Below the pieces are notes generated by a model. The model saw nothing but the letters and a program-made list of their open reading frames with translations, was not told the origin of the DNA and did not search any database. The position numbers and the translations under genes are program-made. Positions 53,952-60,774 of a DNA stretch of 64,000 nt are shown piece after piece; position 1 is the first letter of the stretch, and each line of letters opens with the position of its first letter. The stretch lies in the NCBI RefSeq assembly GCF_054482595.1, contig NZ_CM137008.1; one strand, written 5' to 3'.

Positions 53952-54813
53952 TTTGTGGCCAGTCTTTCTGGCTGGCGGTTCAGGGGATGTTTTCTGGTTA
54001 TCGTGTACCACAAAGCAGGGATATTGCCCCGATAGTCACATTTCAGATTGATCGCGGTCTGAAGATGTGGCACTGAGGTAACGTGCTGGTGTCACTGGTA
54101 TTGCTGAAGTTATGGTTTTTCGGGGTCAGGTGAGCCTGTTGTGTGTATGCTTTTTGTTCAGGTCAGAGGGGGACTGTGTGGACAGCGGCTTTTGTCTCCG
54201 GGCATTCACGCCTGAACGATGAATGCGATTTTCAGCAATATTTGTCTTTGTGACACTCTCTGGTTGAGAAGCTAATGCGCGCCCCTGTTTCCACAGAGAA
54301 TGAGGCTTGCCATCAGCCGAAACATCAGTATTCCACGCCATACAGACGGCGCCTGACCATGTGCTGATGCAGGTAAAATGTTTCACTACAACTGTTCGGG
54401 TTGCTATGCAACGAAACAGCGATTCTCACGATCTTTAACTGCAACGTTTTTCCGCCTGAAAGCTGACTGCCTCCTGCTGAGGTGGGAGGCTATGATTCAG
54501 TGCGTTTATAGTCTCCGGGGTATGCATGTACCGGAGCATACCATTTCTGGTGGATAACAAGCCGGCACATTCAGACTGCAGTGAAGATGGAGGCACCTGG
54601 TTGTGAAGAACGTTTCTGCCCGTGGCTGCTTCGCATCATCAATGGTATTCATACCCGCTCAGAAATGACCGGGTGCTGAAGCCCTCCGTTATCGCGCAGT
54701 ATAATGACGTATATGATCTGTGGACGAGTGAGCGGCGTGCCTGATGTACGCCGCTATTACTGTATTTTACCACAGGGCTGGTTTTCTGCTGCCAGCCCTG
54801 TGGTTCTCAGACA

Positions 54814-55416
54814 TCAACTGTGAGCGGCATCAACCGATGTACGGTATGCCATAAGCACGTACTGATCCATCAGATTTGTCAGTGGTTCACTCTGACCCTG
54901 ACGTGCAATGATCCATTGCTCCAGATCTTTTTCTGATTTGTGTTTCAGGTTTTTCGTCCAGTCGTCAAGGCTGTTTCCGGTCATTAAGTCAAGCCAGCAG
55001 AGCCAGACCAGTTTGAGACGTAACTCCGTGCCGCCAAACTGACGGAAGAGGCTGATCAGTTTGTTTGCCAGAGAATGTTGCTTCAGGCGCTCACATTCAG
55101 ACAGCAGGATCCCTTCCAGCATCGGATGATGAACCAGCAGGTGTTCGCTGGTGCATAAATTCACCACCAGATCATCATCCAGGGACGGGGAGCTCCGTTT
55201 GTCCGGACCATAAATCAGCCGGTGCAGACTCTGGGGAACGATGGCAATCTCCGGTTTTTCGCCATTGAATGACACCCACCCGGGCGTCAGATTATGGAAA
55301 TAGTAGATATTCGGATGACACACGCCCCATGATACGGCGTGCCGGGTGAAGCCGGTCAGCCATTTCTGGTAGTTTTCATGGAGCAGCTCGTAACGGGTCT
55401 GATACTGTTGTTTCAT
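54814..55416 (-). CDS. Hypothetical protein
   Basis: ORF 54814..55431; likely start MKQQYQTRYELL with GAGGAA Shine-Dalgarno; no family recognised. Confidence 0.35.
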   Translation of the reverse strand: MKQQYQTRYELLHENYQKWLTGFTRHAVSWGVCHPNIYYFHNLTPGWVSFNGEKPEIAIVPQSLHRLIYGPDKRSSPSLDDDLVVNLCTSEHLLVHHPMLEGILLSECERLKQHSLANKLISLFRQFGGTELRLKLVWLCWLDLMTGNSLDDWTKNLKHKSEKDLEQWIIARQGQSEPLTNLMDQYVLMAYRTSVDAAHS

Positions 55417-55509
55417 TTTCATATTCCTCACGGGGGATAACAGGCAGCAGAGCGCCGCCGGCAGGCCGGAGATTGCGTCTGCTGTGGGCGAAGGGTTAGT
55501 GGTTAAAAA

Positions 55510-55716
55510 TTACAGACGGGACTGTGCAATACGCGCCTGCAGCCAGGCTTCCACTTCACTTTTCAGCCAGCGGGAGCTGCGCCCCATTTTGATGGGCGCA
55601 GGAAAGCCCCCATCTTTGATGAGTTTGTCAAACCACTTATCGGTAAGGCCGGTCAGTTGAGTGATAAACGCCATGTCGACCATCTGGTCATCCATCAGCG
55701 AAACTGGGGTAGCCAT
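55510..55716 (-). CDS. alpA: AlpA-family phage/island transcriptional regulator (HTH)
   Basis: 68 aa from MATPVSLMDDQMVDMAFITQLTGLTDKWFDKLIKDGGFPAPIKMGRSSRWLKSEVEAWL, the AlpA signature; the longer ORF to 55920 is an upstream extension through a poly-C tract. Confidence 0.6.
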   Translation of the reverse strand: MATPVSLMDDQMVDMAFITQLTGLTDKWFDKLIKDGGFPAPIKMGRSSRWLKSEVEAWLQARIAQSRL

Positions 55717-55880
55717 GAGAATGTTCCTCCGGATGTTGTTAAACCAGCCGGTGTGGTCATGAAAACAGCGCGCCACCTTCACCGGCATAACAACCGGGGA
55801 GAAACGTAAAAAATAATCGGGAATGTGGCTGTCCGGAGATAAACGGGGGGATTGCGATGGCAGAGCCGTAGCGGAATCCC

Positions 55881-55894
55881 GGGGGGGGGGGGGG
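55881..55894. repeat. Homopolymeric G tract, 14 nt (C14 on the minus strand)
   Basis: cccgggggggggggggggttgcg at 55878-55900, about 165 bp upstream of the alpA-like start. Confidence 0.9.
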
Positions 55895-56845
55895 TTGCGA
55901 AAAGATGCTTCCGCACGCACGCGCGATAAAGAGGGGATAGTTTTCGTGAGGACAGGGAGAGAAGCAGGCGTTCTGATAATTGCAGAGTTGTTTTCGGAGG
56001 TGGTTACAGTGAGTCAGCCCGTTCCTGGCGAGCAGGAGACTGATATCACCGATGGGATAAGGTTGTCTGATTGGTATTATAAATATAAGAAGTCATCAGA
56101 GAGTAACGTAAAGGATTTGCCAGAATAACCTAAGAGAGTAAATCTCTCCGGTAACAGAGCGCTGTGAAGCATTCTGTATTAGAGTGCAGATACATGAACG
56201 CTGATGCGTAAAATCAGCAGTGACACGCCAGCTCCCCCTATGCCCATTCCTGTATAAGACATGAACTGAGTGTATTAATGCTTCTGCCCTGAGACTGAGC
56301 CGGTGAGTGAGGGGCTGAGAAATCCCTCTTGACACAGCTCTAACCAGAAATACTTCCCCGGTTGTTGCGGTGCGTCCGGATCCCCGATAACGGAACACTA
56401 AGGCTGTATTGCGGGACACCGGGTAAGTAGCAGCCCGTAAGGCGTTCTGTCAACGCCAGAAAAAATGATTTCCCACACGCGTTATAGACTCACTCCTGTG
56501 GACCTGGAAGCCCGTAACTCTGCGGTTGCCCACTGACTGACGGAACTGACCGCAAATTTTACGAGTGCGTGCTGGGCTTCAGTCTGGTCACCTGAGCGTT
56601 CGGTAACGGAGGCGCGGGCGGTAATAGGCTGATTTTCAGGTATTACCGGCTTACAGCGTGTGGTTGATATTGAGGGGCTGTGAGTTTCGCGTATTTGTCA
56701 GAAACCCAGACGAGTTTTCCTGTATGGGACGAAATAAGGCAGCGGCAATACCTGGAAAAATTTAATATGGTATGAAGGAGAACCTGTCGGTTACGCTTAA
56801 TATACCCGGTACACTGTCAGCTCAGGGGATACATGAACCGTTATC

Positions 56846-57049
56846 TCACCAGCTACACAGTATATACACACTGACGCTGACAGTAGTCAGCAGGACCACA
56901 ATAATCAGTGCCAGCAGTATGGTAACGATACGGTCTGTATTCCGGTAATAGCCGAAGGGGTCGACAGAACCACAATACGGGCAACACACTGTATTATGAG
57001 TAATCGCGTTTCCACAGTCCCTGCACTTCTTTTTGCGTATCACCATCAC
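56846..57049 (-). CDS. Small zinc-ribbon membrane protein (hypothetical)
   Basis: 67 aa; CRDCGN...CCPYCGS zinc-ribbon pair then one TM helix (IVTILLALIIVVLLTTVSVSVYIL); GGAGG Shine-Dalgarno 6-7 nt upstream of the ATG. Confidence 0.3.
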   Translation of the reverse strand: MMVIRKKKCRDCGNAITHNTVCCPYCGSVDPFGYYRNTDRIVTILLALIIVVLLTTVSVSVYILCSW

Positions 57050-57245
57050 TCCCTCCTCACAGCCTTACCCGTAACCGGTTTTTTACATTAAAAAAACAAC
57101 GCTGAAAATTCAACCGTCAGTCCGGAGACGACCGTTCGGGTTATCACAGAGTGCCTGAGACAGTGTCCTGCCGGAGGTCACTTCAGGGACTCTGCGCATT
57201 TTTTACGACGTGGCTATTCCGTATGAACCATACGGAGATTTAACC

Positions 57246-57815
57246 ATGACCTACAAATACAACCCCTTCTGGCAGCAACGTATTCGTGAGACGGTGCGGC
57301 ACGCACTGAATGTTCATCCCCGCCTGACGGCATTGCGGGTTGACCTGCGTTTCCCGGATGTACCGGCAGCAACGGACGCAGCTGTGATATCCCGCTTCAT
57401 CAATGCCCTGAAAGCCCGAATCGACGCTTACCAGAAACGTAAGCATCGGGAAGGTAAACGCGTGCATCCCACAACCCTGCATTACGTCTGGGCCCGGGAG
57501 TTTGGGGAGTGCAAAGGTAAAAAACACTATCACCTGATGCTGCTGGTTAACCGGGATACCTGGTGTCGTGCCGGTGATTACCGTGCTCCGGGATCACTGG
57601 CCGGGATGATTAAACAGGCGTGGTGCAGTGCCCTGGGAGTGGATGTCGGGTGCCATGCCACGCTGGTGCATTTCCCGGCCTGGCCGGCGGTGTGGCTGGA
57701 ACGCGATGATGACACTGGCTTTCAGCAGGTGCTGGAACGTGCTGACTATCTGGCGAAGGAACATACCAAAGCTCACTGCACCGGTGAGCGCAATTTTGGC
57801 TGTAGCCGGAGTTGA
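57246..57815 (+). CDS. YagK/YfjJ-family protein (inovirus Gp2-like domain)
   Basis: 190 aa from MTYKYNPFWQQRIRETVRHALNVHPRLTALRVDLRFPD; GGAG Shine-Dalgarno 8 nt upstream; family assigned from memory. Confidence 0.5.
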   Translation: MTYKYNPFWQQRIRETVRHALNVHPRLTALRVDLRFPDVPAATDAAVISRFINALKARIDAYQKRKHREGKRVHPTTLHYVWAREFGECKGKKHYHLMLLVNRDTWCRAGDYRAPGSLAGMIKQAWCSALGVDVGCHATLVHFPAWPAVWLERDDDTGFQQVLERADYLAKEHTKAHCTGERNFGCSRS

Positions 57816-58074
57816 GCACGACTGGCGCGCCAATACCCGGCAAACCAAAAGTATGGGTTGTTGTCTGGCGGCAACGATGTATCCACTCGCCCACTGACTG
57901 TTTTTTACGTCAGTGTTCCATTGTGTGACAACCACAGTGCTGTAACAGCAACCAGCCTGCTTTACCCAAACTCCAGTCCAGATTTTAACTGAACCGCCAT
58001 TCACACCCTGACCACGCTGCCCGTACCGGGACGGCTGTTGCCTGCGTGTCGTCTGGCGGCTGAGGAATATGACT

Positions 58075-58476
58075 ATGTACGCAAAATCCTTTATCGCTCT
58101 TGATGGCAACGGACGTCTGACGGGCGCCCGTACTGCACAGGCCGCACCTTATGCTAACTACACCTGCCACTTGTGTGGCAGTGCACTCAGATACCATCCG
58201 CAATACGACACTGAACTTCCCTGGTTTGAACACACTGACGACAGGCTGACAGAGCACGGTCAACAGTGCCCTTATGTCAGGCCGGAGCGCAGAGAAATAC
58301 AGTTGATTAAACGTCTGCAGCAATTCGTACCGGATGCCTTACCCGTGGTGCGTAAAGCCAGCTGGCACTGCAGACAATGTCACCACGATTATTATGGGGA
58401 GCGGTACTGCACACACTGCCAGACCGGAGGATTCAGTATTCCCCGGACAACTCAGGAGGAAATATGCGAATTCTGA
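58075..58476 (+). CDS. Zinc-ribbon protein, paralog 1 (hypothetical)
   Basis: CHLCGS...PWFEH...CRQCHH...CTHCQTG; two CxxC pairs and a shared PWFEH motif. Confidence 0.4.
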   Translation: MYAKSFIALDGNGRLTGARTAQAAPYANYTCHLCGSALRYHPQYDTELPWFEHTDDRLTEHGQQCPYVRPERREIQLIKRLQQFVPDALPVVRKASWHCRQCHHDYYGERYCTHCQTGGFSIPRTTQEEICEF

Positions 58477-58871
58477 ACTGTTATATGGCGAATGACAGCA
58501 AAGGCCATTTTGTTACGGCGAAAGAAGCAGCGAAGCACAACCGCCAGGACGTTTTGTGCTGTGTGTCCTGTGGATGCCCGTTAACACTTCAGCGGGGCAA
58601 TGACGGACAACCACCGTGGTTTGAACATGACCAGATGACTGTCGCTGAGAAAATCCTGCTGCGATGCACCTGGCTTGACCCGGCAGAGAAAGAGGCCCGT
58701 CGTTTGCATCTGCAGGGTATGACGGTTCCGGATTATACGGTGAAGGTGAGAAAGTGGTTTTGTGTGATGTGTGACGAAAATTATGAGGGGGAAAAGTGCT
58801 GCCCGAGTTGTGGTACCGGGGTATACAGCAGGGAGGGGGGGCAGGAGGGCAACTGGAAGGATAGGAACTGA
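58464..58871 (+). CDS. Zinc-ribbon protein, paralog 2 (hypothetical)
   Basis: From MRILNCYMAND; CVSCGC...PPWFEH...CVMCDE...CPSCGTG; same motif architecture as the upstream gene; 13-nt overlap. Confidence 0.4.
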   Translation: MRILNCYMANDSKGHFVTAKEAAKHNRQDVLCCVSCGCPLTLQRGNDGQPPWFEHDQMTVAEKILLRCTWLDPAEKEARRLHLQGMTVPDYTVKVRKWFCVMCDENYEGEKCCPSCGTGVYSREGGQEGNWKDRN

Positions 58872-59154
58872 GCGGTTCAGTCGCGGAAATCAGTTGCAGA
58901 GCTGTAATGATATCTCCGGGAGTGCTGCGTTGGTAGGGGCATCCCGGGATAGAGAAATTTTAGCACTTTGCCCTGAATGATTGTAGACGTCCCGAGTACT
59001 CGTACCGGTCTGAGTTATTACAGTTAGATATTCACTTTTTCTCCCGCATACTTCACATCTGTCAACGACGGATGAAAAGTGGTTCTTCCGCAACCTGGGT
59101 GGAAGAAAATGGATGAAACTTTCTGGCGAACAAGGATCTAAGCTGTTTTAAGTT

Positions 59155-60774
59155 ATGGGCAACGCAATGCACTCTCTTAAGACACTTCTACAGTTACCTT
59201 GCGGATGGCGATGCAGTCGACAAATTATTAGCTCTGACGGTATAACCCTCCATCTCCACGGAAAACGCAAAACAGCACAATGTCCTGAATGCTTTAAGCG
59301 TAGCGACTCTGTTCATAGTTGTCGTCGGCGCCGGATACAGCATCTACCCTGCTCAGGGCAGACGCTATGGCTTGTATTTTCCGTCCGCCACTGGTACTGC
59401 CGTAACCCGGCTTGTTCACGTAAAATTTTTGCCGAGTCGCTTGCTCCCTTCGCCAGTTCACACCAGCAGTCTTCACAGGCGTTACAAAATTAACAACGTC
59501 AACTGGGATTAATAGCTGGAGGTGAGGCTGGAAAACGGGCTGCAACGGCAGTGGGTCTCCGTTGCAGTGCTGATACTCTTCTTCGCAGGCTTATCAATAC
59601 CCCGGAGACGAAACAGTCAGGCGCGCCTCATGTCGGTATTGATGAGTGGGCGTGGCATCGGGGCCACTGCTGCGGTATGTTAATAGTCAATCCTGATACT
59701 CACCGTCCCCTCGTCCTGCTTCCCGGCCGTGATCAGCGTACGCTGGCGACCTGGTTCAGAAAATATCCGGAAATACAGGTTGTCTCGCGTGATCGCAGTG
59801 GAGTCTATGCGACAGCAGCACGTGAAGGTGCACCTCAGGCCAGACAGGTGGCCGATCGATGGCACCTGCTAAAAAATATTGGTGATGAGCCTGAACGAAT
59901 GATGTACAGACATATGCCTCTGATACGTCTTGTTGTCAGAGAGTTATCACTGAAGAAATCACCTGAGCCAGAAATATCTGTGCCTGTAGCATCGCTCCGT
60001 CGTCTGGAACGCCTTAAACAGCACATCCGCAAAAAACGGCATCAGCGTTGGACAGAGGTTATGGCCCTGCATAACAAGGGATGTAGTTTCAGGGAAATAT
60101 CCCGTATTACAGGCCTGTCGCGAGTGACAGTCAGTCGCTGGGTGGGTTCAGGAACATTCCCTGAAATGTCAACCAGGCCTCCAAAGCGAGGGCTTCTGGA
60201 CCCATGGAGGGAGTGGTTAAAAGAGCAACGAGAATGTGGTAATTATAACTCCGGCCGGATATGGCGGGAAATGGTGGCCAGGGGGGTTACAGGCAGTGAA
60301 ACCATCGTCAGGGATGCTGTTGCCAAATGGCATAAAGGCTGGATCCCACCGGTTACTACTGCCGCAAGACTTCCTTCAGTGTCACGGGTAAGCCGCTGGT
60401 TGATGCCCTGGAGAATAATCAGGGGTGAAGAAAATTATGCTTTCCGATTTATTAGTCTGATGTGTGAAAAAGAACCGGAGTTGAAAATAGCGCAGCAACT
60501 GGTACTCGAGTTCTACCGTATTCTGAAAACCTAAAATAAATCACAGCTAAGCAGCTGGTTCACTCGGGTCCACGAAAGCGGCTCAGCAGAACTTCGGTGC
60601 GTAGCTGCGGGGATGGAAGCTGATGCTGCGGCTATATGTGAGGCAATCAGCAGTCGCTGGAGTACTGGTGTTGTCGAAGGTCATGTAAATCGCCTGAAGG
60701 TGCTGATACGCCAGATGTATGGTCGAGCCGGACTTGAACTACTTAGGCGGAGGGTAATGAGTCCACTGGCATGA
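59155..60774 (+). pseudogene. ISL3-family transposase, degenerate (split over three reading frames)
   Basis: Fragment 1 (59155-59493) zinc-finger N-terminus (CPECFKR...RRIQHLPCSGQ...RHWYCRNPACSRKIFAE); fragment 2 (59551-60534) DDE region (VGIDEWAWHRGHCCGML...VVSRDRSGVYA...ADRWHLLKN); fragment 3 (about 60540-60774) C-terminus (VVEGHVNRLKVLIRQMYGRAGLELLRRRVM). Confidence 0.5.

Follow-up and report, generated by a model that had tools for sequence, protein, structure and literature searches.

The locus and its genetic setting

The small open reading frame (ORF) described here lies on the minus strand of a stretch of 64,000 nucleotides (the window) that belongs to an E. coli chromosome; over the 20 kb surrounding the ORF, several complete genomes match it with 100% identity. 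Its site is a decayed island of the CP4-44/CP4-57 type that contains IS100, a broken ISL3 transposase gene and an Hha pseudogene. The coding sequence, in the form used by RefSeq, occupies positions 56846..57046 (minus strand) and comprises 66 codons and a stop codon. Divergent from it, on the plus strand, a gene at 57246..57815 encodes a YagK/YfjJ-type protein of 189 aa ("inovirus Gp2 family protein"), which was recognized by the Pfam model YagK_YfjJ_C (1.1e-47) and also weakly matches the Rep ORF2/G2P model. It is followed on the plus strand by two overlapping genes, 58075-58476 and 58464-58871, with domain matches to DUF7828 and Zn_ribbon_11, which complete a conserved module. These two genes are paralogous, overlap by 13 nt and, in most loci that were read, occur together with the small ORF.

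The gene context was read in the window and in the related loci L001, L002, L005, L006, L007, L009, L011, L012, and L013. In every related locus examined (about eight), the small gene is divergent from the YagK_YfjJ_C gene across a conserved spacer of about 200 bp. The module consists of the divergent YagK_YfjJ_C gene, then the two DUF7828/Zn_ribbon_11 genes, and an AlpA-like gene on the other side of the small gene; in L002, L012, and L013, either the AlpA-like gene or the second DUF7828 gene has been lost to IS elements. The other flank is variable and carries an Hha-like gene, an AlpA-like gene, a gene for a hypothetical protein of about 200 aa, YfjI/DUF3987, a GTPase gene, or Ag43. In the window, 56450-56590 (plus strand) contains what remains of an Hha/YmoA-family gene, interrupted by a stop codon and 56% identical to its intact Hha-like counterpart in L005. 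Intact Hha-like copies occupy the equivalent place in L005, L009, L011, and L013, where they are convergent with the small ORF.

The first-pass annotation of the window described an ORF of 67 codons at 56846-57049, without naming the strand. This ORF is present on the minus strand as the longest form of the reading frame, begins at GTG 57049 and reads V/MMVIRKKKCRDCGNAITHNTVCCPYCGSVDPFGYYRNTDRIVTILLALIIVVLLTTVSVSVYILCSW*. However, RefSeq (WP_001297900.1) starts one codon later, at ATG 57046, and the product of this 66-codon form is MVIRKKKCRDCGNAITHNTVCCPYCGSVDPFGYYRNTDRIVTILLALIIVVLLTTVSVSVYILCSW. Altogether, there are three in-frame start candidates, GTG 57049, ATG 57046, and GTG 57043, and upstream of them lies the Shine-Dalgarno sequence GAGGAGG (57052..57058, minus strand; GGAGG core at 57056-57052). 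A strong GGAGG had been reported 6-7 nt upstream of the ORF. The motif is indeed there and is strong, but its distance is 2 nt to GTG 57049, 5 nt to ATG 57046, and 8 nt to GTG 57043. Because a gap of 2 nt is too short for GTG 57049 and a gap of 5 nt fits the ATG, the Shine-Dalgarno sequence would serve ATG 57046, which is more likely to be the start codon than GTG 57049. Judged by this spacing, the Shine-Dalgarno sequence is real and strong, and the start that it serves should be ATG 57046 or the following GTG 57043, not GTG 57049.

One subfamily, represented by L005 (6001-6003), L012, and L013, has ATC in place of the ATG and GCG in place of the upstream GTG, so that the next GTG, which corresponds to window position 57043, is the sole plausible start there. 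This GTG is also the sole start codon that is common to all subfamilies. A purine-rich equivalent of the Shine-Dalgarno sequence, GAGGGAG, is retained in the ATC-bearing subfamilies, in which the next GTG must start translation.

The small gene and the yagK-like gene share the divergent control region 57050..57245 of about 200 bp, which is very conserved across related islands and is better conserved than the 3' half of the small ORF itself. A weak candidate promoter of the small gene, TTGAAT (57113-57108) and TAATGT (57090-57085) separated by 17 nt, was read by eye and failed the consensus scan, which detected neither a sigma-70 consensus promoter nor an intrinsic terminator on the strand of the small gene. 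The candidate -10 element is overlapped by a conserved AT-rich palindrome, GTTTTTTACATTAAAAAAAC (57078-57097). A perfect 8-bp inverted repeat, TCCGTATG-aac-CATACGGA (57218-57236), is located 10 nt before the ATG of the yagK-like gene (57246), overlaps its likely ribosome-binding site and is conserved in all seven aligned loci. This repeat may serve as an operator, as a translational hairpin or as a site recognized by Rep. A search against Rfam across 54000-59500 gave no match.

Architecture of the predicted protein

The N-terminal head of the protein contains a Cys4 zinc-ribbon core, C8-x2-C11-x10-C22-x2-C25, encoded by codons 8-25 (56972..57025, minus strand) and delimited by the alignment and by zinc-ribbon profile matches below threshold. 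The two CxxC pairs reported for the ORF can thus be located in the translation as C8-x2-C11 and C22-x2-C25; an additional cysteine, C21 (numbering of the 66-aa form), stands beside them. In a wide alignment that includes relatives down to about 30% identity, invariance is confined to C8, C11, C22, and C25. C21 is unconserved in the same alignment, which argues that it is not a ligand. The arrangement, two knuckles about 10 residues apart with four conserved cysteines, is that of a Cys4 zinc ribbon, and the head is predicted to bind zinc.

The head is followed by the juxtamembrane motif DPFGYYRNTDR (codons 29-39; 56930..56962, minus strand), which was identified in the alignments. Seven of its residues, G32, Y33, Y34, R35, T37, D38, and R39, are invariant in the close family, and the pattern DPFG..R..DR is common to the island protein and to the plasmid-borne relatives described below. 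The remainder of the protein is a C-terminal transmembrane anchor (codons 40-64; 56855..56929, minus strand), delimited by hydropathy, AlphaFold2 and the diverged copies, after which only about two residues remain. The Kyte-Doolittle hydropathy of a 19-residue segment reaches its maximum of 2.99 at residues 40-58, and AlphaFold2, supplied with the family alignment, predicted a helix at residues 34-65 with block-mean pLDDT values of 91-92 for residues 41-60 and 77 for residues 61-66. Both results agree with the one clear transmembrane helix that the first-pass annotation had noted. For the head, the pLDDT was 53-63 with short bridges only. A single hydrophobic helix close to the C-terminus with about two residues beyond it, the layout of a C-tail anchor, was likewise found in six diverged copies.

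The sequence also allows a prediction of topology. According to the positive-inside rule, the side of a membrane protein that is rich in Arg and Lys stays in the cytoplasm. The head has 7 Arg/Lys versus 3 Asp before the helix and almost no residues follow the helix, which, by this rule, suggests a cytoplasmic head (N-in topology), in the compartment where a Cys4 zinc site can form. In addition, since so short a distance to the stop codon keeps the helix inside the ribosome until termination, membrane insertion of the small protein would be expected to be post-translational. The predicted architecture, that is, a cytoplasmic zinc ribbon with a C-tail anchor in the inner membrane, is very probable.

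ORF length alone was uninformative because the window contains 351 mechanically defined ORFs of 40-120 aa. Two of these 351 ORFs have the pattern CxxC-x6-20-CxxC, and only one, the small ORF, also has a transmembrane helix. In 50 Markov-simulated windows with 27,374 ORFs, the cysteine pattern occurred 28 times, and in no case together with a transmembrane helix. The combination of cysteine pattern and helix exceeds chance.

Searches of Pfam, NCBIfam, PHROGs, and PADLOC did not assign the small protein to any family at threshold and returned only zinc-ribbon matches below threshold and three PHROG families. The best zinc-ribbon scores did not reach the curated cut-offs (Pfam zf-ChsH2, 16.2 versus 23.2 bits; NCBIfam rubre_like_arch, 16.4 versus 32). 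Comparisons with the PDB by sequence and by fold also produced only insignificant zinc-ribbon matches; those found with Foldseek were local, comprising 23 residues with an rmsd of 0.9-1.4, and all had E > 1. The weak profile and fold matches of the protein were all to Cys4 zinc ribbons. Known representatives of this fold (bL32/eL37/eL40, Spt4, RNA polymerase subunit P, Nop10, and the reverse gyrase zinc ribbon, as well as the families zf-ChsH2, Zn_ribbon_3, and DZR) likewise have two CxxC knuckles about 10 residues apart, but none of them is membrane-anchored, and the matches remained below curated or significance thresholds.

Three phage families, phrog_38187, phrog_10292, and phrog_14275, share the order of an N-terminal zinc ribbon and a hydrophobic segment (E-values of 1.5e-5 to 1.3e-3 over residues 6-58). 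However, their profiles comprise 136-178 positions and run past the helix, whereas the island protein stops at the helix. A single C-terminal helix is also the mode of anchoring of TssL, a C-tail-anchored protein, and of YohP; post-translational membrane insertion is described for both (PMC3426401; PMC7549839). Neither of the two is related to the island protein in sequence, and their cytoplasmic domains are unrelated.

Conservation, selection and relatives on plasmids

Codons were compared between the window copy and the diverged copies of L005, L007, L009, L011, and L012, that is, among six intact sequences. The first-pass annotation had proposed conservation of the reading frame in related islands as a check of its own prediction, and the outcome was positive: only the proposed frame is free of stop codons in all six copies. 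In the first 39 codons, 9, 10, and 21 variable columns were observed at codon positions 1, 2, and 3, respectively. The dN/dS ratio of this head region was 0.13-0.29 in 10 of 10 pairs, which equals or undercuts the 0.22-0.32 of the adjacent yagK-like gene in the same loci. The head is under purifying selection. An antisense ORF on the plus strand (56772-56948) was also considered and was rejected because its frame contains stops in four of the six copies.

The transmembrane half has diverged further. In the last 25-27 codons, the nucleotide identity is about 51-55% between transmembrane types and 51-65% over all different-type pairs, and the amino acid identity of the helix between types is 27-64%. 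Despite this divergence, the Kyte-Doolittle maximum is at least 2.8 in all six copies. The variable columns number 20, 13, and 17 at the three codon positions; the minimum at the second position is what maintenance of hydrophobicity would predict. For the same half, dN/dS values of 0.36-2.3 were obtained, which are unreliable and possibly saturated, and this applies also to the values above 1 for the helix in some pairs. All three helix types end 1-4 codons after the helix, resulting in total lengths of 64-66 aa.

The small ORF is a mosaic: its zinc-ribbon half and its helix half are not closest to the same relatives. In the L005 copy, for example, the head is most similar to that of the window copy, and the helix is most similar to that of L011. 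Conservation between islands stops inside the helix-coding part of the ORF.

The evolutionary evidence for a translated gene is strong, with translation itself deduced from it, and the small ORF is almost certainly a real protein-coding gene. Its earlier description as a candidate zinc-ribbon membrane protein is in accord with the selection on the head, the four invariant cysteines and the hydrophobicity of the transmembrane half.

The gene had been suspected to be of a kind that is often missed by annotation. This is not the case: PGAP calls it in every E. coli record examined, as the "hypothetical protein" WP_001297900.1, and an exact-sequence look-up found the identical protein on at least 1000 contigs. 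Other sources name this exact protein "zinc-ribbon domain-containing protein" or "predicted nucleic acid-binding Zn ribbon protein." Its UniProt entry is A0A024L0K2_ECOLX, with the identical sequence and the same 201-nt gene model; the record consists of a name only, without family, topology, or function. The small protein is therefore an already annotated hypothetical protein, an uncharacterised minimal zinc ribbon with a membrane anchor, of a familiar kind. Literature searches for the small protein and for yfjJ/yagK returned nothing relevant.

The 201-nt gene was matched in 3472 of 5426 complete E. coli genomes, at 1-6 places in each (median 2), and in 2100 records of this collection the best copy was at least 99% identical. 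In total, the collection has about 6300 such places, and ST131 EC958 and O104:H4 are examples of strains with the exact gene. Protein searches revealed at least three subfamilies in E. coli, Shigella, Salmonella, and Klebsiella. Among GTDB species representatives, a peptide-pattern scan and an exact 24-mer search found no confirmed relative, which suggests that the gene is strain-level island cargo. The phage collection contained one truncated match and IMG/VR only two loci; this near absence from collections of phages and viruses marks the gene as atypical of phage genes. No such gene adjoins yagK or yfjJ of K-12, which shows that the YagK family does not require it. Frameshifted copies also occur, one in L013, which carries a PGAP pseudogene flag, and others among several variants in the protein searches, indicating that the gene is dispensable or has been lost in some strains. 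In one E. coli assembly (P0126), the small ORF is fused in frame, after the helix, to a fragment of an autotransporter beta-domain, with a total length of 140 aa; a deletion inside the island is the presumed origin of this fusion.

When 1.84 billion representatives were searched with a profile, only 52 hits were obtained. Those beyond the island family are small proteins that share one collinear pattern, C-x2-CG...C-x2-C-S-x-DPFG-x-R-x2-DR, with a helix after it. One group of them is encoded on plasmids (P0109, P0130-P0132, P0135, and P0139) and aligned with the island family over 55 columns with an hhalign probability of 98.2% (E = 4.6e-14). Five genomic contexts were read for this group, with ORFs of 71-77 aa (L021, 3501-3719; L018, 5001-5234; L024, 4001-4216; L026, 4001-4219; L015, 4001-4219). 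In four of the five, the ORF is situated on the strand opposite to the tra genes of an F-type transfer region, in the short gap between traN and an ORF of 126-133 aa upstream of trbC; in the fifth (L015), it lies between traG and traH. L021 is the IncFIA/FIC plasmid NZ_CP095656.1.

With tblastn, the plasmid group was detected in 121 plasmids, of which 116 are conjugative, and for most of the 121 the PLSDB gene table lists no gene at the site. The F-type plasmid ORFs (P0132, P0109, P0131, P0139) resemble the island protein in the collinear motif, the helix and the location on mobile DNA. However, their identity to it is only about 31-35%, about 15 residues follow the helix, and they are found in a type IV secretion system (T4SS) operon instead of the YagK module. 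Two further small proteins that show this pattern, P0118 and P0123, are more distant and adjoin T4SS genes on the opposite strand. The architecture of zinc ribbon and helix looks like recurring mobile-element cargo.

Alternative explanations and a possible role in the island module

Four alternatives were weighed against the reading of the gene as a membrane-anchored zinc ribbon that serves its own module, and none of them is favoured by the tests that were run. According to the first, the product is a small membrane-active toxin or exclusion factor (a type I toxin, or a protein of abortive infection or of superinfection/entry exclusion), the helix of which perturbs or blocks the inner membrane while the zinc ribbon is a regulatory appendage. 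A small single-helix protein encoded on a mobile island and present at several places per genome would be of the right kind, and its relatives lie within conjugative tra clusters, where exclusion genes are typically found. The fast evolution of the helix, with dN/dS up to 2.3, would also be expected in an arms race. However, the strongest selection was found on the cytoplasmic head and not on the helix, and in PADLOC neither the small protein nor the YagK-like protein, the two DUF7828 proteins and the 205-aa neighbour had a match; weak ones were obtained for the AlpA-like protein only. The sole promoter-like site in antisense orientation (56877-56905) is part of the variable helix region and is not found in the other subfamilies; the scan for such sites found 2 versus 1.1 expected. 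In addition, the 5' UTR (57010-57085) is not notably structured (fold z = -0.95; 35 of 200 shuffles fold equally well), and the Shine-Dalgarno sequence is not sequestered. In known type I toxins, the helix comes first and a zinc ribbon is missing, quite unlike the order found here, with a zinc ribbon and the helix last. The layout of a type I toxin system was rejected on the grounds that a conserved antisense promoter, a fold that hides the Shine-Dalgarno sequence, and a terminator were all missing. A toxin or exclusion factor is, on this evidence, unlikely.

Slightly less likely still is a membrane regulator that acts on a sensor kinase, transporter or protease of the host by helix-helix contact, as do MgrB, SafA, and AcrZ. 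The clear single helix of a small protein would suit this mode of action, which a review names as the commonest one known for small bacterial membrane proteins (PMC12648545). Yet the helix is the least conserved part of the protein and is swapped between subfamilies, a poor fit to a specific helix-helix partner, and the conserved part is predicted to be cytoplasmic.

The anchored zinc ribbon could also be what is left of a longer protein with a zinc ribbon, a transmembrane helix and an ectodomain, as in phrog_38187, phrog_10292, and phrog_14275; the ORF would then be a drifting N-terminal stub, cut by the recombination that made the downstream region variable. Matches to the PHROG profiles, which span 136-178 positions, are limited to approximately the first 50 positions, the islands cease to be conserved within the ORF, downstream of which their sequences are unalignable, frameshifted copies exist, and the surrounding island is decayed (IS100, ISL3 pseudogene, Hha pseudogene). 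Independent truncations, however, would not be expected to stop uniformly 1-4 codons past three different types of helix, at 64-66 aa. Moreover, the head is still under purifying selection between subfamilies (dN/dS of 0.13-0.29), and the plasmid relatives are equally short (71-77 aa). We regard this origin as improbable. The weakest alternative, an untranslated ORF that is incidental to DNA-level constraint emanating from the yagK-like control region, could draw on the continuity of the first 117 nt of the ORF with the very conserved intergenic block and on the lack of a consensus promoter or terminator, but is highly improbable given the concentration of substitutions at third positions (9/10/21), the single frame open in all copies, the persistence of frame, length and hydrophobicity at a nucleotide identity of about 51-55%, and the invariance of the four cysteines out to relatives of about 30% identity.

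On balance, the explanation that we consider the best, and moderately probable as a whole, is that of a real 66-codon gene for a C-tail-anchored zinc ribbon that tethers a partner from its own module. The gene is part of the YagK/YfjJ module of CP4-44/CP4-57-type integrative islands in E. coli and close relatives, and its plasmid homologues occur in other mobile elements that process DNA, namely F-type T4SS clusters. Residues 1-39, the basic Cys4 zinc ribbon and the DPFGYYRNTDR linker, would face the cytoplasm, and residues from about 40 to 64 would form a single anchor helix in the inner membrane, leaving almost nothing in the periplasm. The selection on the cytoplasmic head, together with an interchangeable helix, suggests that the helix is a generic anchor and that the head is the working surface. 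The head may bind a cytoplasmic partner, either protein or nucleic acid, and hold it at the membrane. Because the gene is in a fixed pairing with the Rep-like YagK module, a component of this module would be the most likely partner, namely the Rep-like YagK-type protein, its DNA site or spacer, or the two DUF7828 zinc-ribbon proteins. The choice of partner is guesswork based on the neighbouring position of the genes, and their co-occurrence could be due to nothing but linkage. Accepted on its own, a tethering or regulatory role in the island module is a tentative proposal with a rather low probability.

A still more speculative extension, to which we give somewhat less credence, is that the island gene and the ORFs on the anti-tra strand of F-type plasmids constitute one undescribed family of membrane-anchored cytoplasmic zinc-ribbon proteins that is specific to mobile elements. 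Such proteins might couple DNA-processing machinery, i.e., the Rep-like YagK protein or the transfer apparatus, to the inner membrane or control it there.

Roughly two of every three complete E. coli genomes carry the small gene, frequently at several places, and the islands that carry it also contain Ag43, toxin-antitoxin pairs, and defence genes. The part of the protein that is conserved and selected is the predicted cytoplasmic zinc ribbon held at the membrane, which offers a concrete and cheap experimental entry. Of potentially wider interest is the connection with ORFs that lie unannotated within tra operons of IncF plasmids, which are of clinical importance.
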